Shown: piece by piece, positions 10,632 to 36,881 of the stretch
Layout: every line of letters begins with the position of its first letter
How positions within the stretch are numbered: the first letter of the stretch is position 1
Origin: Methanothrix sp.
GTDB taxonomy: Archaea; Halobacteriota; Methanosarcinia; Methanotrichales; Methanotrichaceae
Assembly: GCA_037128175.1 (NCBI GenBank)
Contig: JBAXWY010000004.1
Coordinates: 1 to 64,000, forward strand
Direction of reading: 5' to 3'
DNA: 64,000 bases
The notes under the pieces: model-generated
The model's database searches: none
The model's input: the letters and a program-made list of their open reading frames with translations, nothing else
Told to the model about the DNA's origin: nothing
Made by a program: the position numbers and the translations under genes

Positions 10632-10634
10632 ACT

Positions 10635-18043: not shown

Positions 18044-18226
18044 CTAGCTTTGGCCGATGCTGGCACATGCCGCTTCACATGCCTCGCTGAAACTTCCCAG
18101 ACAGGAATCGTCAAATGTCGCCGCACCTTCATCGGTAATGAATGATTTGCATGCACCCAATACTCTTTCCTCAGCGGAGCCCCGCACCACAACAACCAGT
18201 TGTGGTTTCTTCCATTCTTTCTTCAT
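18044..18226 (-). CDS. RiPP precursor, family A (A1)
   Basis: MKKEWKKPQLVVVVRGSAEERVLGA-CKSFITDEGAATFDDSCLGSFSEACEAACASIGQS; leader shared with five paralogs. Confidence 0.85.
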   Translation of the reverse strand: MKKEWKKPQLVVVVRGSAEERVLGACKSFITDEGAATFDDSCLGSFSEACEAACASIGQS

Positions 18227-18532: not shown

Positions 18533-19167
18533 GGGATAACGGGGATCAAACGGACGCTTGTAAACGTCCAGCACCAGTTCCATGTTCGCAACAAAGCTAC
18601 CATTTTGATCTGGCGGAATTATCCACTCCTCGCGTTGCCATGGTTTGATTTCGTTTTTTTTAAAACGCCACGCACCGTTTCGTGAGAAATGCTCTCGATA
18701 TAGTTGAGCTCGACAACCTTATCGGCTAATAACCTCAAAGACCAACGTGCGAATCCCTCGGGCGGATCACTGCAGCTTAATGCAATCAAATGGGCTTCGA
18801 AATCCCCATCTGTCTTTTTGGCATAAGTGCGACTGCTCTTTTTGTTGTCGAGTGCGACATCAATTCCATCCTCGACAAATCGCTTCTTGACACGGTCAAT
18901 TTTTCTCATGCTTATTTGCAGAACGCGAGAGATCTCTTCATTAGTCGAACGTCCTTTCTGATACTCGCCTTCATCGCACCCAAGCAGAATCAGCGCGTTG
19001 AGAATTTTTTGCGATTTTTGGTTGCCCTTGGATGTAAGTTCTCCCAGGGTTTTCCGCTCGTCTTCAGAAAGCGTCACAACGTACTTCTTCATATTCAATT
19101 CTCCCAGATTGATTATGAAGATAATATATTATATATACTTTGCGACATTATAATCTTGACGAGACAC
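18533..19167 (-). mobile_element. Truncated IS630-family element
   Basis: End sequence TA|GTGTCTCGTCAAG at 19167. OrfA 18619-19098 (HTH; RWSLRLLA...ISHETVR.VLKK). A8C slippery run at 18653-18661; the -1 frame reads KNEIKPWQREEWIIPP...FVANMELVLDVYKRPFDPRYP, then homology stops near 18533 before the DDE domain. Confidence 0.8.
18619..19098 (-). pseudogene. IS630 transposase N-terminal (HTH) part; catalytic part deleted
   Basis: KYVVTLSEDER..L, ILLGCD, CSDPPEGFARWSLRLLADK motifs typical of IS630 OrfA. Confidence 0.8.
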
Positions 19168-19349
19168 TAGCTTTCGCCGATCATGGCACATGCGTTGAAA
19201 CAACCTTCCTCGACATTTCCAACACAGGAAGAATGATATACGTTTGCGCTTGTACCGCTATCGCTTCTTTTGCATACAATCAACACACTTTCTTCAACAG
19301 AGCCCCGTTGCACGACAACCAGTCGTGGTTTCTTCCATTCTTTCTTCAC
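19167..19349 (-). CDS. RiPP precursor, family A (A2)
   Basis: GTG start; MKKEWKKPRLVVVQRGSVEESVLIV-CKRSDSGTSANVYHSSCVGNVEEGCFNACAMIGES. Confidence 0.85.
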   Translation of the reverse strand: MKKEWKKPRLVVVQRGSVEESVLIVCKRSDSGTSANVYHSSCVGNVEEGCFNACAMIGES

Positions 19350-19679: not shown

Positions 19680-19853
19680 CTAGGAAGATAAAACACTCTC
19701 ACAGAATCCTGTACAGATTTCGACGGTGTAGCAGCCAGTCCAATTGTAACCAGCGCCACCAATGCCTTCATTCTTGCAAGCTGATAATACTTTTTCCTCC
19801 ATTGATCCTCTAACAAGTACTACCAGTTCAGGTCTTGTCCAGGTTTTCCTCAT
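19680..19853 (-). CDS. RiPP precursor, family A (A3), 57 aa, absent from the ORF track
   Basis: Manual translation: MRKTWTRPELVVLVRGSMEEKVLSA-CKNEGIGGAGYNWTGCYTVEICTGFCESVLSS*. A GAGGT SD-like sequence is upstream; the gene directly follows the rSAM gene. Confidence 0.85.
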   Translation of the reverse strand: MRKTWTRPELVVLVRGSMEEKVLSACKNEGIGGAGYNWTGCYTVEICTGFCESVLSS

Positions 19854-19898: not shown

Positions 19899-21101
19899 TT
19901 AATTACTTTTCTCTGAGCTTTTCCTTTCTCCAAAGGCCTTAACTCTCTCCCTCCAGTCCTCTACTTCCCAGGCCCATTCGCCTTCCTTCAGCAGTCCCAG
20001 GTACAGAGCCTGGGCATGGGCTACCTGGCACAGATAATCCACCGGAGTATCAAGGGTCCCGTGTTCCATCCAGGACTTGGCCGGGCATTGCTCACATAAC
20101 CCTTTCAGGAAACACCGGGCACAGCGGGTCAGGTAGTCGGGATTGGTGGCCTTCATCTCCCGCAGTTTGGGGAAGAAATTGGTCATAGCGTCCTTGAGAG
20201 ATCCGTTTCCAAGATCGTATACTGCATCGGGATGTCTGAGCATCATGCATGGTTGAAGAACGCCATAGGCGTCCACGCAGGCCCCGTGCCCGGCTCCGCA
20301 GGAGAAGAGCAGCTCGCCGGGCGGCCTCATGAACTTGGAGCAGAATTCACTCATATCTTTAAGGTACTTATCCCGGTCTCTGGAGAGGATGGATACGCCC
20401 TCCTCAGGAGAGAGCCTCAGCCTTTCGATGAGTCTGTTCCTGGCCAGAGAGTCCCGGCGGCAGCGCAGGTCGAAGAACATGGAATATGTGGGAGGATGAT
20501 GCAAGGCAGGAAGCGTTATGGCCCACTGCTCGAATTGATCAATTTCGCCCTTGTTGGGCGGCAGCAGCGCTCCCTTGACCACGAAAGGTATCTTCCTCTC
20601 CAGCAGGAGGTCGAGGCCGCGCCGAAATTGGTCGTAGGAGCCTTTTGACCGGGAGACCGCCTCGTAGGACTCACAGGCCATGCCGTAGACCGTGACCTCC
20701 ACTAACTCCCGGGGCGGCACCCTTGCTAAGAGGTCGGCGATCTGGGGGGTGATGAGACGGGCATTGGTGAAGAGCAATACCTTCAACCCCAGCCTGCGGG
20801 CGAAGAGGTACAATTCCTGGAAATCCTCCCGGAGGAGCGGTTCGCCTCCCGTGAAACGAACCGAGATACAGCCAAGATCTGCCGCCTCGCTCAGGATTGC
20901 TTTAATCCTCTCGGTCGTCATCTCACGGCTTTTGGCCGGATCATCTTCAGGCAGGTTGATGCAGCAGTGGATGCAGTCATTGTTGCACCTCTCAGTCAGC
21001 TCCATGTCCAGACGGCCGAGCAATGGGCCTTTGCCTTTCCAGATGGAGTGCTTCGATGCAGTTCTTTTTGCCAAATATGTGGATTGGAGAATCTCTGTCA
21101 T
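19899..21101 (-). CDS. Radical SAM/SPASM peptide maturase
   Basis: CNNDCIHC (CxxxCxxC), FTGGEPLL, SPASM Cys pattern CGAG...QPC...CARC.....CEQCP...YLC. Confidence 0.92.
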   Translation of the reverse strand: MTEILQSTYLAKRTASKHSIWKGKGPLLGRLDMELTERCNNDCIHCCINLPEDDPAKSREMTTERIKAILSEAADLGCISVRFTGGEPLLREDFQELYLFARRLGLKVLLFTNARLITPQIADLLARVPPRELVEVTVYGMACESYEAVSRSKGSYDQFRRGLDLLLERKIPFVVKGALLPPNKGEIDQFEQWAITLPALHHPPTYSMFFDLRCRRDSLARNRLIERLRLSPEEGVSILSRDRDKYLKDMSEFCSKFMRPPGELLFSCGAGHGACVDAYGVLQPCMMLRHPDAVYDLGNGSLKDAMTNFFPKLREMKATNPDYLTRCARCFLKGLCEQCPAKSWMEHGTLDTPVDYLCQVAHAQALYLGLLKEGEWAWEVEDWRERVKAFGERKSSEKSN

Positions 21102-23089
21102 CGCGCCACCGCTTTATCATCAGGGCGGCTTTCCAGATGCAGCAATCCCTCGATCTCAGGAACGATTCTGCCGCTTTTGTCAAACTCCATCTCATAGCAG
21201 GGCACCTCTCCGGCTATCTCTTCCAGGAGCGTTATCATCTTCTGCCACCATTCGGCGGTTACAAAGGGTTTGATGATACAGGCCATCAGCCTCTTGATGA
21301 TCTCCAAACGCTCTGTAATGGGAGTTATGCGGTTTTGCTCCGATTTCTTCAGGAACAATATGGCATGAAGCGGTGCCGAGGCTGCTGAAACCAGTGGCAC
21401 CTCGCCATGCGACCAGCTGCCGTGCACTCTGAAGCCCTCCGGCCATCTTCGAACTATATTCCGATCATCGCACAATATCTCCGCCCGGTCCATCATCATC
21501 TTCACAGTGGTCGATTTCCCTGCCTCGGAATGGCCCACAAAGAGCAGGCCTTTTCCCTTCAGGATCATGCCTGCCGAGTGGAGGAAGCATGCCTTTCGCT
21601 CGGCCAGGACCCGGGAGAGCAGAATCTGGTCGGTAGGAAAGAGCGTCAGGGAATGCAGCCCGCCTTTGAGAAAGATGTCTTCTCTATCATTGTATATCCT
21701 GGCATGGGAATGATCATCGGAAAAGGTCGCCACACGGTGCAGGCTGGAGTCGCCGGCATTGGGGGAAATGCCCAGGTAGATCCAGGAATGACCCTTGCGG
21801 TAGACGGCCCAGGGGGGCTTGCGGTAGACCTCCCGTCCCAGGTCTTTTCCTTTCAAGTCGGGCAGGCTGAAGTGGTGATGTATGAAGATGGTATCTCCCT
21901 CCGGGCTTGGGCCATCTGCCTGGAACTGCCTGAACTTGGGGTCGAATGTCTGGTCCGTGATGGGCAGGTCCGAATCCACCTGCACGGTAATTCCTCCGAT
22001 CTCATAGTAACGGCGGTGGTTATGTATCCAGTCATCCTTGAAGGCCCGGCCTTCTCTGGCTACCTGGCAGAGGTAATCTATCTTCGCACCATAGCGGCCG
22101 TGCTCCAGATAGGCATAGACCGCGCACCAGCGGCAGTCCGACCGGTTGGGGCAGGAGCCGCAGTCTTCCCAATATTCACTTCCACCCAGGACCCTGTCGG
22201 CCAGAGAGGGTATGAACTGATCCCAGGCTTCCTGAAAGCTGCCTTTTCGGAGGTCGTATCTGAGCGCCGGATCCTTGATGAAGCAGCAGAAGGTCATCTG
22301 GCCGTAAGCATCGACATGAAAGCTGCGTCTGCCCTCTATGCATCTGGCGAAGAGCCGGTCATCTGCGGCAGCAGCGTGGCAGGGATTATCTGTCTGCTGC
22401 TCTTCAAAGGAGACATCCGGCTTGTCCAGATCAATGACCTCGCAGGGAGGAAGTCTCTGGGATGCGATCTCTCTGTTCTTCTGGGGCGAGCCGCAGGCAG
22501 ACATGTACAGCCAGGCTGCTCCTACTCTCCAGTGGGGGCTCAGGGATTTTGCCAGTTCTACCATCTGGGGAAACTGGTGGTAATTGTCCTTCATGGGTAT
22601 GAGCTGGACGGTAAATCCGGCGCCTGCCTCCTTAAGGAGTTCGAATCCTTTCATGGTGGCCTGGAAGGAGCCGGGGTTGCGGGTGACGTGGTCGTGAACT
22701 TCAGCGGTTGCGCCGTAGAGAGCGACCATCTTGCTCCCTTTCCTTTTCAAAAGCTGGGCGATCTCGGGAGTGATCAATGTGCCGTTAGTGTTTAGGGAAT
22801 ATGAGACCGACCGGCTGGTGATGTAGTCAAAGATCTCCGCAAAGTCGTTTCTGAGCATGGGCTCACCGCCTGAGATATGCCAGGTACGGCAGCCCATTCT
22901 TCTGGCCTGGTCAACTATCGACTTGATCTCCTCAGTGGATAGCTCCTCCTGTTGCTCCGGCGCGCCGGGCGCAATTCTCAGCCAGCAATGACAGCAGTTG
23001 TTATTACAGCGGTAGGTAAGGTCGAGGCCCCCCTCTAAAGGCAGGCGAGGAGTCCTGGTTGATTTTTCGATACTCATGTATTCGTTCAT
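21098..23089 (-). CDS. Radical SAM/SPASM maturase fused to a C-terminal HPr-kinase-like (ScmC-like) P-loop domain
   Basis: CNNNCCHC, SGGEPML, CGSC.....CRWC...YLC, then LHSAG...FVGHSEAGKSTT...LCDDRN. Confidence 0.88.
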   Translation of the reverse strand: MNEYMSIEKSTRTPRLPLEGGLDLTYRCNNNCCHCWLRIAPGAPEQQEELSTEEIKSIVDQARRMGCRTWHISGGEPMLRNDFAEIFDYITSRSVSYSLNTNGTLITPEIAQLLKRKGSKMVALYGATAEVHDHVTRNPGSFQATMKGFELLKEAGAGFTVQLIPMKDNYHQFPQMVELAKSLSPHWRVGAAWLYMSACGSPQKNREIASQRLPPCEVIDLDKPDVSFEEQQTDNPCHAAAADDRLFARCIEGRRSFHVDAYGQMTFCCFIKDPALRYDLRKGSFQEAWDQFIPSLADRVLGGSEYWEDCGSCPNRSDCRWCAVYAYLEHGRYGAKIDYLCQVAREGRAFKDDWIHNHRRYYEIGGITVQVDSDLPITDQTFDPKFRQFQADGPSPEGDTIFIHHHFSLPDLKGKDLGREVYRKPPWAVYRKGHSWIYLGISPNAGDSSLHRVATFSDDHSHARIYNDREDIFLKGGLHSLTLFPTDQILLSRVLAERKACFLHSAGMILKGKGLLFVGHSEAGKSTTVKMMMDRAEILCDDRNIVRRWPEGFRVHGSWSHGEVPLVSAASAPLHAILFLKKSEQNRITPITERLEIIKRLMACIIKPFVTAEWWQKMITLLEEIAGEVPCYEMEFDKSGRIVPEIEGLLHLESRPDDKAVAR

Positions 23090-23099
23090 GGAGCAACCC

Positions 23100-24266
23100 C
23101 TAAAAATGATCTATTGTTGGTTGTATTGGTATTTCTTCAGAGCCGGGAAATTCTTTGTACCCAAGGCTCCTGGCCCGTTCATGTGCCACTTTGCAGAAAT
23201 ATTCTATCCAGGAATCCATCTTTCCCACCTCGAGATAGGCATGGGCCGGGCACCATAGACAGAGATTGATTATAGAGCATTTTCTGCATTTGCTCAAAAA
23301 TTCTTCATTATCGGATCGCATATCCCGCACAGCAGGAACGAATTTCTGCCAGGCTTCTCTGAGGCTGCCCGCTCGCAGGTCGTAAATGCACTCCGGATGC
23401 CAGAGGGATGAGCAGAGCCTGAATAATCCGTCGTAGCTAACCGAGAAGCTGCCGTTTCCAGCGCCGCAGTGAAACAGGTGATTGCAGTTAACATGTGCTG
23501 CACCTGGCAATATGAGTTTGTCGCAGCCCTTCTGAAGGGCGCGAAATCGCTCTCCATCCGCATGCTCTATGGCAGCGATCTCTTCCGGGGAGAGGCGCTG
23601 TGCCCTGATCACCTCATTTCGATTTGCATCCCCGTCAAAGCGCAGGTGCAGCAATGGATCAAAACGGAAATAATCCTTGGTATGCTCCCGGCAGAATCTG
23701 GCCATCTCCTCCATCTCATGTGCATTTGCTTGCAGAGCCATGGCTTTGAGCCGCACCTTCACCCCGCTCTGGAGCAGGAGGTTCAGACCGTGGCGAAAGG
23801 CGGCAAATGAGCCGGGTTTCCTGGTCACGGCTTCATAGGTCTCCTTAGTTGCGCCGTAAACTGTTACCTCTATGTCCCTGGGCGGATATTTGCGAAATAG
23901 CTGCACATGCTCCTCTCTGATCAGGCAGGCGTTGGTGAAGACGGATACAAGCAGGCCCAGTCTCTTCAAGGCCATGTAAACCTCCTCGAAGTCGTCTCTG
24001 AGCAGGGGTTCTCCTCCTGTGATCAGGCACCAGACTGCCCCCATTTCTGCGGCCTGGGATGCGATTCTCTTTATCTCATCAATATCCAGTTCCCTGCCCC
24101 TGGCAGCAGCATCTCCGGCGGGAAGGCAGATGTAGCAATGCCGGCAATCGTTGTTGCAGCGGGCCGTGATCTCCAGGTCGAAAGAGAACGGAGTGTGTCT
24201 CTCTTTCATCGTATCCCAAAGCGGTAGGTCCGGCAGTGACTGTTGGGCGATAAATTCTTCGGTCAT
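23100..24266 (-). CDS. Radical SAM/SPASM peptide maturase
   Basis: CNNDCRHC, ITGGEPLL, CGAG...RLC...CRKC.....CLWCP...YFC; paralog of 19899-21101. Confidence 0.92.
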   Translation of the reverse strand: MTEEFIAQQSLPDLPLWDTMKERHTPFSFDLEITARCNNDCRHCYICLPAGDAAARGRELDIDEIKRIASQAAEMGAVWCLITGGEPLLRDDFEEVYMALKRLGLLVSVFTNACLIREEHVQLFRKYPPRDIEVTVYGATKETYEAVTRKPGSFAAFRHGLNLLLQSGVKVRLKAMALQANAHEMEEMARFCREHTKDYFRFDPLLHLRFDGDANRNEVIRAQRLSPEEIAAIEHADGERFRALQKGCDKLILPGAAHVNCNHLFHCGAGNGSFSVSYDGLFRLCSSLWHPECIYDLRAGSLREAWQKFVPAVRDMRSDNEEFLSKCRKCSIINLCLWCPAHAYLEVGKMDSWIEYFCKVAHERARSLGYKEFPGSEEIPIQPTIDHF

Positions 24267-24278
24267 ATCTGAATTCTC

Positions 24279-25277
24279 TTAATCCGTCGGCAGGTTCCGG
24301 CGCATGACAACTCTGCGTCTGCCTGTTTTTTCGAAATCTTCATCAAGCTGGGGCTGCAAAGCCGGCAATCTCGTCCGCTCAAAATCGAGCTTGCGGTAAA
24401 GATTGATTGCAGGGGGATTGTCATCGTATACCAGCAGGAACAATTCCTTGACACCATCAGACCTAGCCCTGTCAATCACCTGCTGACAGAGCGCCTCGCC
24501 GATCCCCATACCGCGAACCTTCACCCTTACCATGAGGGCAAAGATCCAGTGGCCGACATAAGGATAGTGCTCTGCGGGGTGAGTGACAAGCTGGACAAAT
24601 CCCACGATCTCGGTGCCGATTTTGGCGACATAATTTTTCACCAGCGGATTGGGCCGGTATGAATTAAGCCTGCAGCCGGGACTCCAGATGTTGTTGACCT
24701 TTGCCATATCCTCTCCATCAGCTTCATAGATGGAATATTCCGTCCCCAGCTTTCCGGCAATTTCCCTGTAGAGAGTCGTGCCCTGCATCTTTATCAGAAT
24801 CCGGGCGAACAGCTTTCGCGTGAGACTTTTCACCCGTATACACTTTAAAAGATCATGTCTGGCGAGAAGGGCGATCAACTGTCGCTCTGTCCCCAGACCC
24901 AGCAATACTCTATGGCCGTTTCTTTCTACCTTCGTCACCAGGCCGATCACATTCTGGGAAGGTATCAGGCCGTCCGGCTCCGGTACATTATCGCCCTTTA
25001 TAATGTAGCTGTCGTTCCTTTTGTCTATAATCCTGTGGACGGCCAGCTTTTCTGTTTCCGGCAGGAGAAAGGCCACAACGTCACCGACCACCGGGCGGCC
25101 AGAGGGCATAGGAGAAACGGTGATGACATCCATGTTTTTAATAAAAGGGATCATGCTGATTCCGGCTGCCCTGAACCGGAACGATTTTCCCTTTTCGGTG
25201 ACGGCACTGAGAAGTTCTACCAGGGCCTTCATGGAGAGGTTGTCCTCTCCTCCATCTATGACAAAATCCGTGGCCAT
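24279..25277 (-). CDS. S24/S26-family peptidase fused to a GNAT acetyltransferase
   Basis: N-terminal GISMIPFI...GDVVAF...VHRII...KGDN; C-terminal LMVRVKVRGMGIGEAL...LLVYDDNPPAINLYRKLDF. Confidence 0.8.
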   Translation of the reverse strand: MATDFVIDGGEDNLSMKALVELLSAVTEKGKSFRFRAAGISMIPFIKNMDVITVSPMPSGRPVVGDVVAFLLPETEKLAVHRIIDKRNDSYIIKGDNVPEPDGLIPSQNVIGLVTKVERNGHRVLLGLGTERQLIALLARHDLLKCIRVKSLTRKLFARILIKMQGTTLYREIAGKLGTEYSIYEADGEDMAKVNNIWSPGCRLNSYRPNPLVKNYVAKIGTEIVGFVQLVTHPAEHYPYVGHWIFALMVRVKVRGMGIGEALCQQVIDRARSDGVKELFLLVYDDNPPAINLYRKLDFERTRLPALQPQLDEDFEKTGRRRVVMRRNLPTD

Positions 25278-25279
25278 CC

Positions 25280-25612
25280 TCAGGCCTGAACAACCATCTT
25301 CCTCTCGAAGAGTACGTTCACCAATCCGGCAATGTCTTGCTCGATCTCACCAGGCTGGGCCTGGAAATCTGCATTCAGAGCCTTCGCCACCTCTCGCAGG
25401 CTCCTTTTGCCGTCAAGCCTCTCCCAGATGGCCCGGCCGGTCTCATTGAGGGTGTAGATCTCGTCCTCCATGTCTCCAATTCCTGATGTTAGGGGCACCA
25501 GGATGAACTCGCCTTCGATCTCCCTGGCCACAACGTCCTCGGATGCAATGTAGGCAGAATCAATTTCAACTTCGTGCACCATATATTCACCTTTTACGCA
25601 ATTGATATCCAC
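25280..25612 (-). CDS. PqqD-family RiPP recognition element (RRE)
   Basis: VVAREIEGEFILVP...YTLNETGRAIWERLDGKRSL...IEQDI pattern. The start may be at 25582. Confidence 0.9.
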   Translation of the reverse strand: MDINCVKGEYMVHEVEIDSAYIASEDVVAREIEGEFILVPLTSGIGDMEDEIYTLNETGRAIWERLDGKRSLREVAKALNADFQAQPGEIEQDIAGLVNVLFERKMVVQA

Positions 25613-25752
25613 ACAGAATTTTAAAGCTTTCCTTCAACCAGGATTATAAAGAGCCCTTTTTCAGGCGGTTGAAAGTGCATACGGAAGTCAAAAATTTAAG
25701 GGTTTGATGAAGACGGACACGCCGCCGTGGGCCAAAGGCCCGGAGATTTAAT

Positions 25753-25926
25753 CTATGATTGCCCAGTAGTGCTGCATCTGGAACATGGGGGAACTCCCTG
25801 CATGCAGGTCGTATATGTATTTGCAGGGAAACCGGCCGTGCCGCCTTTACAGAATGATAATACATCCTCCGGATCTGAACTTCTTGCCAAAACCAGCAAT
25901 TCAGGCTTAGCCCATAATTTCTTCAT
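25753..25926 (-). CDS. RiPP precursor, family A (A4)
   Basis: MKKLWAKPELLVLARSSDPEDVLSF-CKGGTAGFPANTYTTCMQGVPPCSRCSTTGQS; start trimmed to match the paralogs; GGAGG upstream. Confidence 0.82.
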   Translation of the reverse strand: MKKLWAKPELLVLARSSDPEDVLSFCKGGTAGFPANTYTTCMQGVPPCSRCSTTGQS

Positions 25927-26059
25927 GACATCCCTCCGATTAGACACTTATTCTTTTGCACTCGGGCTAAACTATATCAAATTATTCCTATGATCTATTT
26001 CTAAGCAATATAAAACAGACAGTAGGTTTAAAGCAGGGAATTGCAGATACGAAATCCAT

Positions 26060-26278
26060 ATGTCCACTAAATCTGCTTTGCTGTTTATCCAGCACGTCGG
26101 CAGAGACGAGTCCATCAAAGATAAGATCCGGGCACATGGTCTTGAATCTAACCTGGAGACCCTGGTAAGCATTGGCCTGGAAGCAGGATATTCATTCACG
26201 GCAAAGGAACTTATGGTCGCCTACAGACTGGACTGGAATGCACGCTGGATCTTCAATAGCTCCAGATCTTCAAGATGA
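26060..26278 (+). CDS. Nif11-like domain small protein
   Basis: MS..SA..F...V..D......I......LETLVSIGLEAGYSFTAKEL Nif11-type pattern, followed by the tail AYRLDWNARWIFNSSRSSR. Confidence 0.65.
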   Translation: MSTKSALLFIQHVGRDESIKDKIRAHGLESNLETLVSIGLEAGYSFTAKELMVAYRLDWNARWIFNSSRSSR

Positions 26279-26283
26279 ATGAA

Positions 26284-27429
26284 TCAAACATCAATGTCGT
26301 CAAAGTGCCCGGCCAGGCGCTGAGCCAGACCCGCGTAGCTTTGACCGCTCTGAATGAACTTGCGATAGAAGAACTCGGGATTGTCCAGAAATATCGGCTG
26401 AATGTAGCGGCGTAAGCTATCCAGATGTTTACCAATCCCCTGATGAATGAGGTGCTGATAAACCCTGCAACATTCACGATCAGAGGACGGTATATCGTAG
26501 CCGGCTAAATCCAACGGTTTCATGTCGAGCAAAGAGCTAACCACGTCGGCTGCTAAACTTCCGCTCTGCATGGCATAGCGAACTCCTTCGCCGCTGATGG
26601 GATCTACCAGGCGGGCAGCATCCCCAATCAGGCAGACCCGGCGCGTAGCAATCTGCTCATGTCCCGAATAAAATGGAATGGGGTGGCTGTACATTTGCAA
26701 AGATCGTATGCTTTTGGCAGGAAGGCTTTTGACCAAGAGGCTATTCATATCGCCCAAAATTCCCTTTTTTCTGTCCCAGGACACCACTCCACAGCTTAGT
26801 CTCCCCTCCCTCTTAGGAAAGATCCAGCCGTACCCCCTGGGAAGGCAGAAGTAATTGAATGTCGCTGTATCTTTATGGGATTCGTGCACCTCCGCCGTTA
26901 CATCAACCTCGGCGTCAATGGCAATTCCTGGATGCGAATCACTCTTAAGTCCCAGACAGCGGGCAGTCTTGCTCATAGCTCCGTCTGCTGCTATCAGAAA
27001 CTTAGACCGTACGACCTCTCCGCCCTTTCCCTGGACTGTAACCCCGTCAGCTTCCTCCTTGACAGCAGAGAGATCGAATCCCCCCCATAACTCTACATTG
27101 CCTCCTGCGGATGTTATGGCCAGGTCTACCAGGAAAGCATCAAGCCGGGAACGGTCCACCATATTAATTGGCGCATGTATGCAGAGATTGGGCTTTTCAT
27201 AATCGTAAAGTGATCTGGTCTGAGCTACTCTATTCTCCGTTATAGGGCTCAGGTCCAGGCCGAAGGATTCACCTGTATTTTCGGGAAGGGCCCCTCCGCA
27301 GGCTTTGTGGCGCGGCAGCTTCTCTTTCTCCAATATCGCCACGCTTATCCCGGTCCTGGCTAATCTGCATGCGGCCATCGCGCCCCCGGGACCGGCACCA
27401 ATGATGGCTACATCAACCTTAGCGGACAT
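26284..27429 (-). CDS. Geranylgeranyl-reductase-family FAD-dependent oxidoreductase
   Basis: DVAIIGAGPGG, EKEKLPRHKACGG, LIAADGA, GYGWIFPK, IGDAARLVDPISGEGVRYA. Start placed at MSAKV. Confidence 0.88.
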   Translation of the reverse strand: MSAKVDVAIIGAGPGGAMAACRLARTGISVAILEKEKLPRHKACGGALPENTGESFGLDLSPITENRVAQTRSLYDYEKPNLCIHAPINMVDRSRLDAFLVDLAITSAGGNVELWGGFDLSAVKEEADGVTVQGKGGEVVRSKFLIAADGAMSKTARCLGLKSDSHPGIAIDAEVDVTAEVHESHKDTATFNYFCLPRGYGWIFPKREGRLSCGVVSWDRKKGILGDMNSLLVKSLPAKSIRSLQMYSHPIPFYSGHEQIATRRVCLIGDAARLVDPISGEGVRYAMQSGSLAADVVSSLLDMKPLDLAGYDIPSSDRECCRVYQHLIHQGIGKHLDSLRRYIQPIFLDNPEFFYRKFIQSGQSYAGLAQRLAGHFDDIDV

Positions 27430-28504
27430 TATTTGCCACCGAGAAGCACTCCTCTGGCTTAAGCCATCTGTGGTTGAACCGAAGGTAAGCTTTTGCCTCC
27501 AGCGGCATTTCCGGTCGATAAATAAACTTAACGTGGCTGATGTCGCGTTCAAATATGCTTAACAGATCCGGTTGAAGGAGCGATTGTGAAATTATATAGG
27601 ACGGCCATGGAACTGGGCACGAGGTAGGTTCTGTAAATCCCTCCCAGGCAAGCACACCATCACGCTTATCCGGCGAACACAGCCCTGCCTCAACCAGATG
27701 GTCGAGGAGAAATGGCCAGTTGGGTCTTCTGTCTGGCCCTTCTCTACTAAGGCACGACAGCCCGATCTTTGGGCGAATGACCGATCCGATATCTACATGC
27801 ACCAAATTAATGTAGACGCCTAAATGGTCCAACTGCTCAATCAAAGCCTTAAGTTTGCCTTCATCCCAGGACCAGCCAATGTGCTTGAGCAGGGGAATTA
27901 TGCACCCTGAAGACTGAGGGATGAATTCGACGCGAAGGGTCTCAGTTTTGCGTGCCAGCATGGCACCAATATAGATCAGCCTGGCCTCATCAAAGGTGAA
28001 ACAACGGTGTAAGACATCCTGCCAGGGAAATGGCCCAGGCGCGCCGAACTGAATCTGCAATCCTTCGTCCAGAGCTGATTGCTTTTCGGCAGTCAGTCCA
28101 TCTATTTTCAATCTCAAAAAGACGGATGGAAGGCGCGGCCGGCAAGCCGGAGCATCTGCATCGATCTCAAAAAGAATGCTATCCACGGCATCATGGATGG
28201 AAGATGACTGTTCTTGCCATTGAGAGCATAACTTGTGAATCCCAGCCCATTTGGGACTGCCGGATAATCCTGACCCTATAATATGATTCATAAGGATATC
28301 CGGCTCTTCGTTGTCGGTGAGGATTTGCTGGGATAGATCCGCTTGCAAGGTGTTGTCACTTAGGCGGCACTCGATGAGGCCATTGACTATGGGCGGGAGG
28401 GCTCTGGCCATCTCGATCAGCTTCTGGGCGGATGATTCTGATACAAGCACGGGAGAAAGATTAGGGATTAGGACTTGAAGGGAGTCTGCCAGGGTGGGCC
28501 GCAT
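27419..28504 (-). CDS. Conserved hypothetical protein (possible prenyltransferase-barrel-like tailoring enzyme)
   Basis: 361-aa ORF overlapping the start of the reductase gene; motifs IECRL...ADL, LFEID, SHVKFIY...EAKAYL. The function is inference only. Confidence 0.45.
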   Translation of the reverse strand: MRPTLADSLQVLIPNLSPVLVSESSAQKLIEMARALPPIVNGLIECRLSDNTLQADLSQQILTDNEEPDILMNHIIGSGLSGSPKWAGIHKLCSQWQEQSSSIHDAVDSILFEIDADAPACRPRLPSVFLRLKIDGLTAEKQSALDEGLQIQFGAPGPFPWQDVLHRCFTFDEARLIYIGAMLARKTETLRVEFIPQSSGCIIPLLKHIGWSWDEGKLKALIEQLDHLGVYINLVHVDIGSVIRPKIGLSCLSREGPDRRPNWPFLLDHLVEAGLCSPDKRDGVLAWEGFTEPTSCPVPWPSYIISQSLLQPDLLSIFERDISHVKFIYRPEMPLEAKAYLRFNHRWLKPEECFSVANNVR

Positions 28505-28560
28505 AGATCAATTCACCAGAAACTGATATTCTCAAAAGCCTAATGCCAAAAAATAATGGA

Positions 28561-28740
28561 CTAGCTATTCGTGGATGTGGCACAAGCGGTGCAATGCCCA
28601 TCACTATCCTGCGCCAGGCACCCTCCATCAGTGGCAGACGCCCCAGAATTTCCGGCCACCCTGCATCCTGTGAGCACGTTTTCTTGAGCCAAACCTCTGG
28701 CCACGACAATTAATTTTGGTTTCTTCCATTCGTTCTGCAT
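28561..28740 (-). CDS. RiPP precursor, family A (A5)
   Basis: MQNEWKKPKLIVVARGLAQENVLTG-CRVAGNSGASATDGGCLAQDSDGHCTACATSTNS; AGGAG upstream. Confidence 0.85.
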   Translation of the reverse strand: MQNEWKKPKLIVVARGLAQENVLTGCRVAGNSGASATDGGCLAQDSDGHCTACATSTNS

Positions 28741-28757
28741 GCAATATCTCCTCTGAT

Positions 28758-28822
28758 TGATCCCGTTAAGAGCTACTCCAATCTCATGCAACTTCTGCTA
28801 TATTGAATTATCTCCGAGAGAC
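28758..28822. repeat. Duplicated 5' upstream/promoter region shared by A5 and A6 (second copy ~29148-29213)
   Basis: TGATCCC..TAAG.GCTA.TCCAATCT.ATGCAACTTCTGCTATAT.GAATTATCT is near-identical in both; it contains minus-strand GATAATTC[A/G]ATATAG. Confidence 0.8.
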
Positions 28823-28965
28823 CTGATCTTTTCCCTCCAATCCTCCTATTCAAGAAACTTGAGAAAAAACGATCCAGGGCATAGAATAGAAGCCGGGGAT
28901 GAGGCACTTAAATACTGCCCTACCACACGGATAATCCCAAGTGCCAAAGGCCAAGGGATATAGAG

Positions 28966-29130
28966 CTAGCTGTTGGAAACATTATCACATTGATTGGTAT
29001 CGTAAAAACAAGCATACCAAACACTATACGCTCCCTCCACACTCTCTGTCTTACACCCTGTTAACACGTTTTCCTCAGCTAAACCTCGTACCACGACAGT
29101 AAGTAGCGGTTTCTTCCATTCTTTCTTCAT
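28966..29130 (-). CDS. RiPP precursor, family A (A6), 54 aa, absent from the ORF track
   Basis: Manual translation: MKKEWKKPLLTVVVRGLAEENVLTG-CKTESVEGAYSVWYACFYDTNQCDNVSNS*. Confidence 0.85.
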   Translation of the reverse strand: MKKEWKKPLLTVVVRGLAEENVLTGCKTESVEGAYSVWYACFYDTNQCDNVSNS

Positions 29131-29310
29131 GTAATATATCCTTTGAATGATCCCAGGTAAGTGCTATTCCAATCTTATGCAACTTCTGCTATATCGAATT
29201 ATCTGCGAAAGATGCTATCTGTATTTTCCCCGGGCTTGAATTATGCTTCGCAAATGGCAAGCCTGTGGGGATGAGGCAACTCTGCCTGCCAATCAGATAA
29301 TATATATTCA

Positions 29311-31152
29311 GTGCTGGTTCAGAACTCAGTGTGGCGAGGTAAATCATTGGATCTCTCATCTGCAAAGACCATAGGGAAAACTGCATCTGACAATGCTCTC
29401 CGTCTCAAACAGGCCGTAGACCTGGTCTGGAAGAGCGCACCAGGCTGGACCCTGGCAGGCATCGTCCTGATCGTCCTGCAGGGCAGCCTGCCCCTGGCCG
29501 CGCTTTATCTGATGAAGCTGATCGTAGACGGTGTCACCTCCGGGGCCGGCTTTGAGGCGGTCCTGCTCTGGATCGGCCTGGCGGGTGGTGTAGCCCTGTT
29601 GGTGGCTATCTGCAACTCGGCATCGAGTGTTGTCGGTGAAGCCCAATCGATCCTGGTCTCGGACAGCATCCAGGAGATCCTGCACGCCAAATCTGTGGAG
29701 GTCGATCTGGAGTACTACGAGAACCCAAAATACTACGAAATGCTGCATCGTGCCCAACAGGAGGGGCCCAGCAGGCCGACCCAGATCGTGAACGGCCTGC
29801 TTCAGGCGGGACGAAACGGCATATCCCTGGTTGCAGTCTTCGCTCTGATGGTTTCTGTTAACTGGCTGGTGGCCCTGCTCCTCTGTGTTGCCGCCCTGCC
29901 CAGCGCTCTGATCCAGGCCAGATATGCCAGGAAGCTCTACCTCTGGCAGCGCAGTTGCACCAGGAAGGAGAGAGCTGCCTGGTACCGACACTGGCTGCTC
30001 ACCAGCGATGGTTACGCTAAGGAGATCAGGCTCTTCAACCTGGGATCGCTATTTATGCGCCAGTACCGGGAAATTCGCGAGGTGGTGCGAAAGGAACGGC
30101 TGGCCATTATCTACCGCAGATCCGCCCTGGATCTTGCATCCCAGGCCGTCGCCCTGATCGCGGTCTTTGCCTCCCTGGCCTTTGTCGCCAACCAGGCACT
30201 ACTGGGAAGCATTACTCTGGGATCAATGGTGATGTACTTTGGTGCAGTGCAGCAGAGCCAGTCCTTCCTCTCCAGCTTTCTGAACAATCTGGCTAAGCTT
30301 TATGAGAGCAATCTTTTCCTGACCAATCTGCACGAATTCCTGCAACTGGAGCCCAAGGTCAGAGAACCGTCCCATCCTAAAAAAGTTCCCCACCCCATTA
30401 GGCAAGGCATCAGCTTCGAAAACGTCAGCTTCGGCTTTCCTGGCACTGGCCCCCTGGTCTTGAAGAACATAAACCTCCAGATCGGTCCCGGTCAGACGGT
30501 GGCCCTGGTGGGCGAGAACGGATCCGGCAAGAGCACTCTGATCAAACTCCTCTGTCGGCTCTATGATCCGCAGGAAGGCAGAATCGCCTTGGATGGGATC
30601 GACCTGCGAGACTTCAATACTGTGGACCTGCGGCGAGAGATGAGCATCATCTTCCAGGATTATGCCCGCTATAACCTGACAGCTTCTGAGAACATAAGGC
30701 TAGGCAACGCCCATGCGCCTCCAGCAAAAGAGAAGATCATGGCGGCGGCAGAGTGCTCCGGAGCGCATGAGTTTATATTTGGTCTGGATAAAAAATATGA
30801 AACCGTTTTGGGCAAATGGTTCGATGAAGGTACTGAGCTATCCGTGGGTCAGTGGCAGAAGGTTGCCCTAGCCAGAGCATTTCTGCGCGACTCCCAGATA
30901 ATAGTATTGGACGAGCCCACCAGCTCGCTCGACCCCAGGGCCGAGGACGGGGTCATCAGGAGGTTTCGCCGGCTGGCCGAAGGGAAGAATGCGATCATCA
31001 TAAGCCACCGCCTCTCCACGGTGACTTTAGCGGACTGCATTTACTTCTTGAAAGACGGCAGGATCGTCGAGAGCGGAACTCACCAGAAGCTGATGGAACA
31101 ATGCGGTGAATATGCCAGACTATTTGAGATCCAGGCCAGACATTATCGATGA
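29311..31152 (+). CDS. ABC exporter, fused permease/ATPase (no C39 peptidase domain)
   Basis: N-terminal TMs, GENGSGKST Walker A, LSVGQWQK signature, IIVLDEP Walker B, SHRL. Confidence 0.92.
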   Translation: MLVQNSVWRGKSLDLSSAKTIGKTASDNALRLKQAVDLVWKSAPGWTLAGIVLIVLQGSLPLAALYLMKLIVDGVTSGAGFEAVLLWIGLAGGVALLVAICNSASSVVGEAQSILVSDSIQEILHAKSVEVDLEYYENPKYYEMLHRAQQEGPSRPTQIVNGLLQAGRNGISLVAVFALMVSVNWLVALLLCVAALPSALIQARYARKLYLWQRSCTRKERAAWYRHWLLTSDGYAKEIRLFNLGSLFMRQYREIREVVRKERLAIIYRRSALDLASQAVALIAVFASLAFVANQALLGSITLGSMVMYFGAVQQSQSFLSSFLNNLAKLYESNLFLTNLHEFLQLEPKVREPSHPKKVPHPIRQGISFENVSFGFPGTGPLVLKNINLQIGPGQTVALVGENGSGKSTLIKLLCRLYDPQEGRIALDGIDLRDFNTVDLRREMSIIFQDYARYNLTASENIRLGNAHAPPAKEKIMAAAECSGAHEFIFGLDKKYETVLGKWFDEGTELSVGQWQKVALARAFLRDSQIIVLDEPTSSLDPRAEDGVIRRFRRLAEGKNAIIISHRLSTVTLADCIYFLKDGRIVESGTHQKLMEQCGEYARLFEIQARHYR

Positions 31153-32354
31153 ATTGGGGTAGCTATATGATCAGGACGGATAAAGAGGTCGAGCTGCTTT
31201 TGGCATGTTCAAGGCCACAGGTGGACAGCGAGAACGCAAAGAGAATCTGCGCTCTTCTCAAGGAGGAGATGGACTGGGCATGGATCATCAAGGCAGCTCG
31301 AACTCATGGCGTCATGCCTCTCTTGTACCGCCACCTCAAGGCAGCGTGTCCTGGGGCAGTTCCCCCTGAAATCTACCTCGATTTACAGAAGGTCTATCTC
31401 CTCAACACCAAGAGGAACTTGATATTTGCCAAAGAGCTGCTTGGCATCATAAAGGCCCTCTCGGAGCATGGGATTGAGGCAGTACCCTTTAAGGGACCGG
31501 CACTCTCCCTGATGGCTTACGGAGATATCACTTACAGGTCATTCTCAGATCTGGATATCATGGTTCATAAGGATGATGTACTTCCGGCCAAAGACATACT
31601 TATTTCCCTTGGTTATAAGCCTCAGGTCTGTTTTACTCCCCGGCAAGAAAGGAATATCATGGAGAACGTATGCGAATATAATTTTGTTCGTGAAAATCCT
31701 TCCATCCTGGTTGAGATTCATTGGCGGTTTCATACGGATTTTTACTCAGTTCCGGCTAGCCAAGGAATTTGGTCTCGCCTGGAGAGCATAAACCTGGAAG
31801 GAAAGCAGATCCCCAGTTTCTCGGCAAATGATCTGGTCTTGGTTCTCAGTTCTCATGCGGCCAGGCATGAATGGACCCAAATAAAATATGTAAGCGACTT
31901 TGCAGGATTAATTTCACACAGGCAAATAGATTGGGATAAAGTGGTGGACAGTGCTGATAGGATGGGCCTGTTGAGAATACTTCATATAAATCTCTTGCTT
32001 GCAAAGGACCTTCTGGATGCCAAACTTCCTCTGCAGATGATTGACGAAATAGGTAGAGACCGCTCCGCTAAAGAAATAGCTCTAAAAATGTCAGAAAAAC
32101 TATTTTCAGACACGAATGCGAATGGAGGATCTATTGAGAAGTATCTATTCTGGCCGAGAACTAGAGAACGTCTGAGAGATCGGGTGAAATATCTATTCCT
32201 GGTAGGCTTCAAACCCACACAAGTCGACTACGATGCCTTCCCATTGCCGGATTTTTTATATCCATTTTACTGGATCATCAGGCCCGTTCGCCTGCTCTGC
32301 AAATATCGGGTCAAAAAAAAGAATGTGACTCATCAGGAGGGAAAAACTTTATGA
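31149..32354 (+). CDS. Nucleotidyltransferase family protein (NTP_transf_5-like, as in lasso-peptide clusters)
   Basis: W......A..HGV.PL, PFKGPALS...YGD...RSFSDLDIMV, VEIHW motifs. Confidence 0.85.
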   Translation: MNWGSYMIRTDKEVELLLACSRPQVDSENAKRICALLKEEMDWAWIIKAARTHGVMPLLYRHLKAACPGAVPPEIYLDLQKVYLLNTKRNLIFAKELLGIIKALSEHGIEAVPFKGPALSLMAYGDITYRSFSDLDIMVHKDDVLPAKDILISLGYKPQVCFTPRQERNIMENVCEYNFVRENPSILVEIHWRFHTDFYSVPASQGIWSRLESINLEGKQIPSFSANDLVLVLSSHAARHEWTQIKYVSDFAGLISHRQIDWDKVVDSADRMGLLRILHINLLLAKDLLDAKLPLQMIDEIGRDRSAKEIALKMSEKLFSDTNANGGSIEKYLFWPRTRERLRDRVKYLFLVGFKPTQVDYDAFPLPDFLYPFYWIIRPVRLLCKYRVKKKNVTHQEGKTL

Positions 32355-32644
32355 GTGATGATGACAATTTAGCAATACCAATCCCTAACCCAGCCTCTTT
32401 CTTTAAGGAGGACCACGCAGGTTGGGGGGTGCTGGTCAACATGGATACTGCTGCCTCAGTAGCCTTGAACCCCACAGGCACGATGATCTGGAAGCTGATC
32501 GATGGGAAGCGTAGCTCAAGGGACATCGCACTAGCATTTATGAAAGGCTTTCAAGATGCACCGCATTCGGTATATGAGGACGTAATGGCCTTATTGGATT
32601 CTTTGGCAGAAGATGGTCTGATAGGCTATGAGGTTAGAATATGA
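32351..32644 (+). CDS. PqqD-family RRE (ScmD-like)
   Basis: PIPNP...E....GVLVNMDT....LNPTGTMIWKLIDGK...EDV..LL..L...GLIG. Confidence 0.88.
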   Translation: MSDDDNLAIPIPNPASFFKEDHAGWGVLVNMDTAASVALNPTGTMIWKLIDGKRSSRDIALAFMKGFQDAPHSVYEDVMALLDSLAEDGLIGYEVRI

Positions 32645-32913
32645 CTCGCTATCTTGCCAACTCAGTGGTTTCTTGTCGTGACGAAGGTGAGGATGGGGCT
32701 CTGCTCTTTAATCCGGACCTGGACGGGGCGGCTCTCATAAATCCTACCGGCCGCTTGATCTGGGATATTCTGGTTTTGCCCCATACGGTGGAGGAGATCT
32801 CCAACCTCCTGGCTGAAAAGCTGAATATCACGGATGCATCGGTTGTCGAAAATGATGTGGATTCGTTTTTAAAGACGCTCCAGCCTGATTATATTCTGGT
32901 GGATGAAGATTGA
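32641..32913 (+). CDS. Second PqqD-family RRE (ScmD-like)
   Basis: ANSVVSCRDE..DGALLFNPD....INPTGRLIW...VENDVDSFL. Confidence 0.85.
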   Translation: MTRYLANSVVSCRDEGEDGALLFNPDLDGAALINPTGRLIWDILVLPHTVEEISNLLAEKLNITDASVVENDVDSFLKTLQPDYILVDED

Positions 32914-34052
32914 AACCTGTTCTTCGCTTCGAAGACGATCTGACGGTCCCTCCGCCCGGCCTGATGAGGGTGCCGAATACCGTTGAGATCTGCATCACGG
33001 GGAGGTGCAACCTCTCCTGTCGCTATTGCTTTTATGCCGATGAGATGTCTGCCCTCAAAGACCTGCCAAAGGAACGCTGGCTATCATTTTTCGAAGAGAT
33101 GGGCTCGCTTGGAGTGCAGAGAGTCACACTCAGTGGAGGCGAAGCCTTCACAAGGCCCGATATCTTCGAGCTGATCGACGGCCTGATCGATAATAAGATG
33201 CGCTACAGCCTGCTTACCAACGGAACGCTGATCACCGAAGAGACGGTAGAAGCCTTTGGTGTGGGCAAGCGCCGTCTGCGCCTGGATTCGATACAGTTTT
33301 CCATTGACGGCTCATGCGCTGAAGTTCATGACGCCAGCCGCCCGCCTAAGAGCTTCGATCGAGCGCTGCGCGCCCTTCGGCTCATGAAAGAGCGCGCGTT
33401 TCCCCTGGCCGTTCGAGTGACTGTCAACCGCTACAATTTGCATGATCTGGAGAATATCGCCCGGCTGCTGCTGGAGGATGTAGGGCTGGCGTCCTTTGGC
33501 ACCAATGAGGCGGATCGCTTCGGATCGGCTAAATGCTATGGCCAGGATGTAGTGCTCACGCCCGCGGAGCGGTTAATAGCCATGCGGACACTGAAAGCTC
33601 TGGCGATGCGCTATCCCGGCCGGATCGCTGCTGCTGCCGGGCCGCTGGCCATGGCCAACATGATTGAAGATATCGAGAAGAGGCAAAGCCGCGGCGAGAC
33701 GGGAATGCCGGGCAGGGGAACGCTCTGCTCCTGCGGCGGAGCCTTCCAGAAGCTGGCAGTACTTCATGACGGGACAATAGTGCCCTGCAACCTTTTGCCG
33801 GACTTCAAAATGGGGGAGATCGGCAAGACGCCTCTCCTGGAAGCATGGCTGCACGGCCAGGCTATCAATGCTCTGCGCAAGAGAAGATCGATTCCATTGT
33901 CGTCTCTTCCTGAGTGTCGGGACTGCAAGTACACGGGCTTTTGCGCAGGGGGCTGTCCGGCTGTGATCTACGCAAAGTTGGGTAGGCTGGATACAATCGA
34001 TCCAGGTGTCTGCTACCGTCAATTCAAGGAGGCAGATCATGTCGCTTTGTGA
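32910..34052 (+). CDS. Radical SAM/SPASM protein, SynChlorMet ScmE-like
   Basis: ITGRCNLSCRYC, SGGE, CSCGG...DGTIVPC...CRDC.....CAGGCP; it sits between the PqqD genes and a second rSAM. Confidence 0.85.
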   Translation: MKPVLRFEDDLTVPPPGLMRVPNTVEICITGRCNLSCRYCFYADEMSALKDLPKERWLSFFEEMGSLGVQRVTLSGGEAFTRPDIFELIDGLIDNKMRYSLLTNGTLITEETVEAFGVGKRRLRLDSIQFSIDGSCAEVHDASRPPKSFDRALRALRLMKERAFPLAVRVTVNRYNLHDLENIARLLLEDVGLASFGTNEADRFGSAKCYGQDVVLTPAERLIAMRTLKALAMRYPGRIAAAAGPLAMANMIEDIEKRQSRGETGMPGRGTLCSCGGAFQKLAVLHDGTIVPCNLLPDFKMGEIGKTPLLEAWLHGQAINALRKRRSIPLSSLPECRDCKYTGFCAGGCPAVIYAKLGRLDTIDPGVCYRQFKEADHVAL

Positions 34053-35193: not shown

Positions 35194-35229
35194 TCATTTA
35201 GCATAAAATTAGTAAGAGGTGTGTGAGAT

Positions 35230-35436: not shown

Positions 35437-35466
35437 AAAGAATTTTTGCAGTGGCTTTATAACAAA

Positions 35467-35604: not shown

Positions 35605-35670
35605 TGCCTCAATTCGAAGATATTTCCAGGAATCGAGAAAAGGGGGTAAATTTGGAAGGGATGATGGTCT

Positions 35671-36855: not shown

Positions 36856-36881
36856 TCATTTTGCAAAGAGGTGCGAAAGGG

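Follow-up and report, generated by a model that had tools for sequence, protein, structure and literature searches.

Why should the six small precursor peptides of an archaeon, with cores that are largely dissimilar, all end in the same residue, and what is a domain resembling HPr kinase doing at the end of a radical S-adenosylmethionine (SAM) enzyme encoded beside them? Both questions are raised by a 64,000-nucleotide stretch of Methanothrix sp. (contig JBAXWY010000004.1, positions 1 to 64,000; hereafter the window). Its 18.0–39.8 kb part holds two adjacent systems for peptides that are ribosomally synthesized and then post-translationally modified (RiPPs), one on the minus strand with the six precursors (family A) and one on the plus strand of the SynChlorMet type (family B). 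The answer that we favour, with modest confidence, is that the minus-strand genes at 18044–29130 form one RiPP pathway, in which the HPr-kinase-like (HPrK-like) domain would phosphorylate the invariant C-terminal Ser of peptides cross-linked by radical-SAM enzymes. In the order of transcription, these genes are:

28966..29130, minus strand: precursor A6, 54 aa, ending SNS.
28561..28740, minus strand: precursor A5, 59 aa from ATG, ending TNS.
27419..28504, minus strand: accessory protein with an ABBA (PT-barrel) prenyltransferase fold, assigned from a model; no match in Pfam or NCBIfam.
26284..27552, minus strand: accessory flavoprotein of the geranylgeranyl reductase family (TIGR02032, 196 bits against a cut-off of 158.8).
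25753..25926, minus strand: precursor A4, 57 aa from ATG, ending GQS.
25280..25612, minus strand: PqqD-family RiPP recognition element (RRE; PQQ_PqqD 2e-10, lasso PqqD 3e-6).
24279..25277, minus strand: fusion of a protein like signal peptidase I of the archaeal type (SpI-like; S24/S26) and a GNAT acetyltransferase (sigpep_I_arch 1.5e-12, Peptidase_S24 3e-5, Acetyltransf_1 2e-16).
23100..24266, minus strand: radical SAM/SPASM maturase (Pfam Radical_SAM 5e-21, SPASM 0.0037), of a type that every related locus keeps, acidobacterial loci included.
21098..23089, minus strand: 663-aa fusion of a radical SAM/SPASM part (residues 1 to ~360) and a P-loop domain of the HPr kinase/phosphoenolpyruvate carboxykinase (PEPCK) fold (residues ~370–663, nucleotides 21101–21979).
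19899..21101, minus strand: radical SAM/SPASM-type maturase (Pfam Radical_SAM 1e-20), with a start that overlaps the stop of the fusion gene and orthologs in W-type loci.
19680..19853, minus strand: precursor A3, 57 aa, ending LSS.
19167..19349, minus strand: precursor A2, 60 aa, GTG start, ending GES.
18619–19098: transposase-like helix-turn-helix (HTH) fragment.
18044..18226, minus strand: precursor A1, 60 aa, ending GQS, stop TAG.

The six family-A paralogs have in common the leader MKKEWKKPxLvvvxRG..EE.VL..C[K/R], with a W-x-x-P motif and the wider pattern WxxPxL...EExVLxxC[K/R]; the junction Ser is not conserved. The initial annotation had stated that all six end in Ser, and the ends match it exactly (GQS, GES, LSS, GQS, TNS and SNS), three of the precursors lying within the interval that it covered (21098..32354) and the other three at 18.0–19.9 kb. 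In each of them the terminal Ser sits six residues past the last Cys (C-x5-S). Mean identity among the six peptides is 58% in the leaders and 25% in the cores, and Ser makes up 21 of the 179 other core residues (12%), which for six independent Ser ends gives P ~3e-6. Since the peptides are paralogs, the real test lies in comparative data rather than in this P value. Scans of the six family-A and three family-B precursors against Pfam and NCBIfam returned no curated family; their N-terminal leaders weakly matched a radical-SAM RiPP model and the paeninodin leader model (E 0.006–1).

We would also note that all six family-A genes stop with TAG, while their terminal Ser codons vary (AGC four times, TCC and TCA). 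TAG is used by 8 of the 45 larger open reading frames (ORFs) of the window, and the bacterial precursor homologs stop with TAA, TGA or TAG. Recoding at TAG was considered and rejected: read-through would extend the peptides by 4, 17, 0, 18, 6 and 29 codons, and none of these extensions is conserved. The common stop likely reflects shared descent or chance.

The comparative data came from two sources. A genome scan with the alignment of the fusion proteins gave 601 pattern matches and at least 32 confirmed loci (L001–L032), and profile searches found a kinase homolog in all 32 loci fetched. Loss of the terminal Ser from clusters that keep the kinase had been named at the outset as the outcome that would speak against a link between the two; instead, all 19 precursors with the EExVLxxC junction, from 16 kinase-bearing loci, end in Ser. 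These loci span Chloroflexota, Clostridia, Desulfobacterota, Actinomycetes, Acidobacteriota and Planctomycetota, as follows:

Leptolinea (L002, two peptides), Eubacteriales (L005), Desulfobulbaceae (L008), Clostridia (L010) and Pirellulales (L024, three peptides).
Actinomycetes (L009), with a sequence that appears frameshift-ridden.
Ten acidobacterial-type loci (L011–L015, L017–L020 and L023).

Eleven of the 32 loci (L001, L003, L004, L006, L007, L016, L021, L025, L026, L029 and L032) yielded no recognisable precursor, and five of the eleven are contigs shorter than 7 kb. The second source was a search of the sequence database with the precursor profile, which gave 2107 homologs; the figures that follow rest on the best 120 of these, and the sequences are related to one another. 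All 120 end in Ser, as against a Ser content of 13% elsewhere in their cores, and 119 have EExVLxxC[K/R]. The distance from the last Cys to the terminal Ser is fixed within each leader type, being C-x5-S in 21 of 21 peptides with W-leaders and C-x4-S in 99 of 99 with Y-leaders. Neither family A nor these 120 homologs have a second conserved Ser position.

The acidobacterial-type loci help to separate the kinase from its fusion partner. In all 11 of them the kinase is encoded by a separate gene and there is a single radical-SAM gene, one of the 23100 type; neither the fused radical-SAM part nor 19899–21101 has an ortholog there. Wherever a precursor was found, in 10 of the 11, it still ends in Ser, and in these 10 the precursor gene sits between the radical-SAM gene and the kinase gene. 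Thus, the Ser tracks the kinase and not the fusion partner. In several of these loci (L011 12324–21593; L013, L014, L017, L018, L020 and L023), the kinase gene is followed by a giant ORF of ~1,400–3,100 codons or more, which has a weak signal-peptidase-like match and in L018 extends to the end of the locus. Elsewhere among the 32 loci, the four lasso-type precursors of L027, L028 and L031 also all end in Ser.

What, then, is the fused domain? The predicted fusion of an HPr-kinase-like domain to a radical-SAM enzyme at 21098–23089 was borne out, the 663 codons forming a single uninterrupted frame. Residues 24–180 match Pfam Radical_SAM (2e-23). All 25 fusion proteins in the alignment keep the SAM-cluster cysteines C28, C32 and C35 (CxxxCxxC) and, further towards the C terminus, C250, C268, C310, C313, C319, C322 and C341; the Pfam SPASM model was not reached. 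The kinase-like region (~370–663) carries LHSAG (H504), GHSEAGKST (519–527) and CDDR (D541, D542). The same 25 proteins are invariant at the His-Lys-Asp-Asp residues H504, K525, D541 and D542, at R543, and at G519, H520, S521, A523, G524, K525, S526 and T527 of the P-loop, which conforms to the Walker A pattern [AG]xxxxGK[ST]. The His-Lys-Asp-Asp motif is reported to be essential in lasso-tailoring kinases (PMC9266682), one of which, PsmK, was inactive as a D158A/D159A mutant (PMC6993621).

By sequence, the domain is a remote superfamily member rather than a bona fide HPr kinase/phosphatase (HPrK/P), given scores that stay below the curated cut-offs. Its NCBIfam matches are ScmC (TIGR04249; 8e-9, 35.2 bits against an equivalog cut-off of 125), HprK-related kinase B (6e-5) and HPr(Ser) kinase (1e-3; the hpr-ser model gives 18.1 bits against 240), and Pfam Hpr_kinase_C gives E 0.079 and 12.9 bits against 33.3. 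A profile of 21 such domains run against the PDB sequences matched HPrK/P (1jb1, 2qmh) with E 1.5e-5 over profile positions 133–197, a stretch that takes in the P-loop and also the conserved His; matches to ABC transporters, among those shown, reach over only ~24–40 positions at the P-loop. The AlphaFold2 model of the domain has a pLDDT of 89.5, and the best PDB matches in Foldseek are PEP carboxykinases and the HPr kinase/phosphatases 1ko7, 1knx and 1kkl, with probability 1.0 but modest TM-scores of 0.3–0.5. These two enzyme groups have one common fold, and the modelled domain has that HPrK/PEPCK-type fold. A structure prediction of the kinase domain together with ATP, Mg and the precursor profile scored 0.02 (mark 0.32) in a run without controls, a score that carries no weight for or against binding. 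With residues 370–663 as query, a search retrieved 1476 proteins (E<=1e-3); PF04055 and PF27840, the latter a recent Pfam entry, occur together in 106 of the 120 that were listed. Among the matches listed, the closest homologs of the fusion are from a Euryarchaeota archaeon (88% identity), Methanothrix sp. (86%) and a Methanotrichaceae archaeon (83%).

That a homolog of this kind would act on a C-terminal Ser has precedent. PadeK, ThcoK and PsmK are reported to phosphorylate or polyphosphorylate the C-terminal Ser of lasso precursors (PMC6993621, PMC9266682), so the background given by the initial annotation for paeninodin- and pseudomycoidin-type clusters is confirmed there. So is the link that it drew between the pseudomycoidin nucleotidyltransferase and glycosylation of the phospho-Ser: PsmN, an uncharacterised NTP transferase, was required to put one or two hexoses on the phosphate and was inactive as a D134A/D136A mutant (PMC6993621). 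The window encodes a candidate counterpart, together with an exporter, divergently from precursor A6:

29311..31152, plus strand: MsbA-like ABC exporter (ABC_tran 2e-32, ABC_membrane; MsbA models 3e-89, below cut-off).
31149..32354, plus strand: NTP_transf_5 protein (PsmN/LppN-type), overlapping the ABC stop.

The NTP_transf_5 assignment of the latter, made beforehand from the letters, is firm (PF14907, 1e-60, 205.7 bits against a cut-off of 31.2), and its D134 and D136 (DxD) are invariant in 10 of 10 homologs.

From the gene content, the domain folds, the catalytic residues and the conservation of the terminal Ser and its spacing, we infer the chemistry of the pathway as follows. The PqqD protein would bind the W-x-x-P leader of the six precursors, and the three radical-SAM/SPASM enzymes would cross-link the Cys-rich cores, with a thioether as the default guess. 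The fused HPr-kinase/PEPCK-fold domain would then use ATP to phosphorylate, or perhaps polyphosphorylate, the side chain of the C-terminal Ser, a site deduced for family A from sequence comparison. NTP_transf_5 may subsequently put a hexose or a nucleotide on the phosphate, as PsmN does. The SpI-like/GNAT fusion is probably the leader peptidase, by analogy with LppS, the reported leader peptidase of the linear polyphosphorylated peptide (LPP) pathway (PMC13381572); it would cut the leader and may acetylate the product, which the MsbA-like pump would export.

Several observations weigh against the terminal Ser as the target of the kinase. HPrK homologs also accompany precursors that lack it: none of the four precursors of an Acutalibacteraceae locus, L030, ends in Ser (ends R, A, N and G; common motif FEYKDQVVAAS), nor does either of the two in L022 and L027, which were retrieved as distant relatives of the fused kinase, carry the published LPP motif (...FETAQS...) and have precursors ending in K, and of the five family-B peptides beside ScmC only one does (ends L, G, S, G and R). 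The varied ends of family B mean that the ScmC of the window cannot target a conserved terminal Ser. In the L030-type and LPP-type precursors the conserved Ser follows the leader motif, at another position than in family A, and the LPP kinase LppK is reported to polyphosphorylate core Ser3 (Popov et al. 2026, PMC13381572). Taken together, these cases indicate that an HPrK homolog alone does not dictate a C-terminal site. Furthermore, the fused domain falls under every curated family cut-off, and phmmer places it nearer to the LPP-type kinases (3e-12, 2e-10 and 4e-9) than to a lasso-type one (6e-6). The 23100-type radical-SAM enzyme is equally constant wherever the Ser is conserved and, being present everywhere alongside the kinase, may itself be the reason for that conservation. 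The fixed Cys-to-Ser spacing could mean that the Ser is part of a cross-link instead of, or besides, being the phospho-site. The Ser ends of the best 120 of 2107 homologs were counted with a search profile that was itself Ser-ended, which slightly favours Ser-ending matches. Lastly, the NTP_transf_5 gene lies in the operon of the neighbouring system and is facultative, with occurrences in 2 of 6 W-type and 0 of 11 acidobacterial-type loci.

L030 deserves a word of its own. It is a distinct radical-SAM/kinase cluster (8790–12709), with a kinase that has a PqqD-like C-terminal tail and SGD in place of DD. A single-sequence phmmer search had found no kinase there, and the locus was taken as a kinase-less negative control; the profile search did find one, and that reading was withdrawn.

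Some of the points just listed fit an account with another phospho-site, and we see a real, though minor, chance that it is the correct one. The kinase would then act on a different residue, for example a junction Ser or Thr in the manner of LppK, and the role of the terminal Ser could be to accept a radical-SAM thioether from the Cys that precedes it by five or six residues, or to be recognised by a maturase or by the exporter. The kinship of the domain with the LPP-type kinases (the nearest characterised-type relatives by phmmer), the core Ser3 target of LppK, the strict spacing and the constancy of the 23100-type enzyme all fit. Family A, however, offers no further conserved Ser or Thr position for the kinase to use; in every family of HPrK-associated precursors that was examined a single Ser is conserved, and in family A it is the final residue. 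The fixed C-x4/5-S spacing, seen in all of the best 120 of 2107 homologs, would also be explained if the phospho-Ser were transient, eliminated to dehydroalanine and closed by the nearby Cys into a C-terminal lanthionine-like ring. Such kinase-then-elimination logic is that of the class III/IV lanthipeptides. We regard it as improbable here: Pfam and NCBIfam recognise no lyase-type domain among the cluster proteins, the HPrK-type RiPP kinases so far studied are reported to yield stable mono- or polyphosphates, and an NTP_transf_5 partner suggests a phosphate that lasts.

Least probable, with only a slight chance in our judgement, is that the HPrK-like domain is not a protein kinase at all and either supports the radical-SAM enzyme as its ATP-binding scaffold or chaperone or phosphorylates a small molecule. 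Its scores below all curated HPrK cut-offs would allow this, as would the presence among its best fold matches of PEP carboxykinase, an enzyme that acts on a small molecule. Against it stand the invariance of the four catalytic residues of peptide-tailoring HPrK homologs, the reports that peptide-kinase activity is proven for the homologs of lasso and LPP clusters, and the precursor gene, which always adjoins the domain.

Which of the two systems, then, does the NTP_transf_5 protein serve? Translational coupling ties its gene to that of the ABC exporter, and the gene leads the SynChlorMet-type operon of the plus strand; the protein may therefore act for family B, for family A or for the two together. 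No ABC exporter besides this one was found in the window; with a single exporter and a single NTP_transf_5 protein between two systems, sharing is the simplest reading, and the divergent pair probably belongs to the family-A pathway too. In L002 the ABC and NTP_transf_5 genes come right after the last radical-SAM gene, with no SynChlorMet genes, and L007 has the pair also; it was not found in the W-type loci L005, L008, L009 and L010. Among the loci, the nearest homolog of the NTP_transf_5 protein (34% identity) is in L024, a cluster with a YEPPK leader, an HPrK/signal-peptidase fusion like the ScmC protein of the window, and Ser-ending peptides.

The remainder of the plus-strand operon comprises:

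32351..39784, plus strand: SynChlorMet-type system, in the same operon direction as NTP_transf_5, made up of the genes below.
32351–32644 and 32641–32913, plus strand: two PqqD genes.
32910–34052, plus strand: ScmE.
34006–35193 and 35671–36855, plus strand: ScmF, two copies.
35230–35436, 36885–37091, 37191–37406, 37655–37864 and 37964–38173, plus strand: family-B precursors B1–B5 (YEPPKA leader; last residues L, G, S, G and R).
38216–39784, plus strand: fusion of ScmC (HPrK-like; 169.5 bits) and a signal peptidase.

The order of the operon is thus ABC exporter, NTP_transf_5, two PqqD, ScmE, ScmF, B1, the second ScmF, B2–B5 and the ScmC/signal-peptidase fusion. The family-B cores are rich in Ser, Gly and Asn and have three Cys. 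The fusion protein exceeds the ScmC cut-off (169.5 versus 125 bits), whereas the three minus-strand radical-SAM enzymes score 66–92 bits against ScmE/F models with cut-offs of 400. Tandem Repeats Finder reported nothing in the family-B region; dispersed direct repeats are present at 34867–38347, where a unit of ~263 nucleotides, made up of a B precursor and a remnant of the scmF 3' end, occurs in four copies, and further copies of the scmC 5' end lie at 35463–35519 and 37402–37507. These dispersed repeats indicate recent local duplications. Family A has W-x-x-P leaders and one PqqD gene, and family B has Y-x-x-P leaders and two PqqD genes, a contrast that mirrors the published Trp/Tyr discrimination of co-resident lasso and LPP recognition elements.

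The surroundings of the two systems may be described briefly. The window also encodes A-type ATP synthase subunits, a form-III-like RuBisCO and an aldehyde:ferredoxin oxidoreductase, and by gene content it looks like an archaeal chromosome. Between A1 and A2, the fragment at 18619–19098 is a 159-aa ORF with transposase-type HTH domains (HTH_32, HTH_29), and it is probably the remnant of a mobile element that split A1 off from the cluster. Adjoining the cluster at 979–17945 are genes for NDP-sugar and glycan metabolism and for an 864-aa membrane protein; they include two GlmU-like nucleotidyltransferases, a GlmS-like protein, a UDP-sugar dehydrogenase, an oxidoreductase, a DegT aminotransferase, a hexapeptide acetyltransferase, and GT4 and GT-family-4 transferases.

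Two accessory genes set the archaeal cluster apart, as neither 27419–28504 nor 26284–27552 has a counterpart in any of the 32 related loci. The former has 2100 relatives, some of which are fused to squalene-cyclase-like or lipid-type methyltransferase domains. Its model (pLDDT 92.6) has a PT-barrel fold, and the best Foldseek matches shown are all aromatic or peptide ABBA prenyltransferases (Orf2/NphB, AnaPT, PriB, DMATS and PagF) with TM-scores of 0.4–0.55, PagF being a cyanobactin enzyme. Together, the two genes suggest a further step, particular to this archaeon, in which the peptide is prenylated and then saturated.

What would the pathway mean if the kinase does modify the terminal Ser? 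To our knowledge, few RiPPs are phosphorylated, and the only ones so far attributed to HPrK-type kinases are lasso peptides and the linear LPPs of Bacillota. Here, a module of kinase, NTP transferase, signal peptidase, RRE and pump would be joined to radical-SAM cross-linking in one archaeon and at least six bacterial phyla, often with the kinase physically fused to a radical-SAM enzyme. The family is uncharacterised and large, counting no fewer than 1476 enzymes of the fusion type and no fewer than 2107 precursor homologs, and its sequence rule is simple and testable: the peptide ends in a Ser that the last Cys precedes by a set number of residues. It would give a candidate function to the long-unannotated ScmC/HprK-related proteins of radical-SAM cassettes, and it points to a large unexplored natural-product family that includes rare archaeal RiPPs. 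A bolder proposal, which we consider doubtful, is that family A and its more than 2000 relatives are a new RiPP class with a C-x4/5-Ser-COOH tail, where the phospho-Ser is the handle for a phosphodiester-linked glycan, nucleotide or isoprenoid. If so, the PT-barrel enzyme, the geranylgeranyl-reductase-family enzyme and the NDP-sugar/glycosyltransferase locus would make a lipid- or glycan-anchored cell-surface molecule and not a free antibiotic.

How do these features compare with known systems? With the sactipeptide/ranthipeptide type, the minus-strand pathway shares a Cys-rich core, SPASM-type maturases and a PqqD-type RRE; neither a kinase nor a terminal-Ser rule was found described for that type in the literature searched. 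With SynChlorMet (TIGR04248–TIGR04251) it shares radical-SAM/SPASM enzymes, PqqD and the HPrK-like ScmC, but the family-A kinase and radical-SAM scores are far below the Scm cut-offs and the family-B peptides have no terminal-Ser rule. In NCBIfam, the entry of an HPrK-like ScmC under the SynChlorMet cassette is long-standing; the literature searched gave no function for ScmC, no match for NTP_transf_5 by name with RiPPs, and no description of HPrK-type kinases joined with radical-SAM RiPPs, the nearest match being the lasso context only.

The two closest parallels are the lasso and LPP systems. In common with the paeninodin/pseudomycoidin-type lasso systems are the His-Lys-Asp-Asp kinase of the HPrK superfamily, the [W/Y]xxP leader with a PqqD-type RRE, the conserved C-terminal Ser, the NTP_transf_5 protein with its DxD and the MsbA-like exporter. 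Unlike them, the window has a Cys-rich core, three radical-SAM/SPASM enzymes, a kinase fused to one of these, an SpI-like leader peptidase and an archaeal host; a lasso cyclase (Asn-synthase-like) and a B2 protease were sought by Pfam in 16 cluster proteins and 30 other window ORFs, with no match. The core set reported for LPPs consists of an SpI-like peptidase, a stand-alone RRE, a kinase resembling HprK, an uncharacterised NTP transferase, which as LppN was inactive in the heterologous host, and an MsbA-like pump (PMC13381572). All five parts are present here (24279–25277, 25280–25612, 21098–23089, 31149–32354 and 29311–31152), likewise without a cyclase and beside polysaccharide genes; for LPP and paeninodin clusters a location in capsular polysaccharide loci is reported, as is a restriction to Bacillota (PMC13381572). 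The differences are that the LPP kinase is free while that of the window is fused, that the window adds three radical-SAM enzymes (radical SAM does not occur in the main text of PMC13381572), that the motif YxxPxVLxHQxIxFETxxS is absent from family A, and that LPP C-termini vary, the phospho-site being core Ser3. The initial annotation had seen in this locus lasso-type tailoring grafted onto radical-SAM peptides. Its pairing of a kinase with an invariant Ser on such peptides, without a lasso cyclase, stands; lasso tailoring is, however, not the sole match, since the LPP module fits equally. The locus should rather be viewed as the HprK/SpI/RRE/NTP-transferase/pump module that is common to paeninodin-type lasso peptides and LPPs, joined here to radical-SAM cross-linking.

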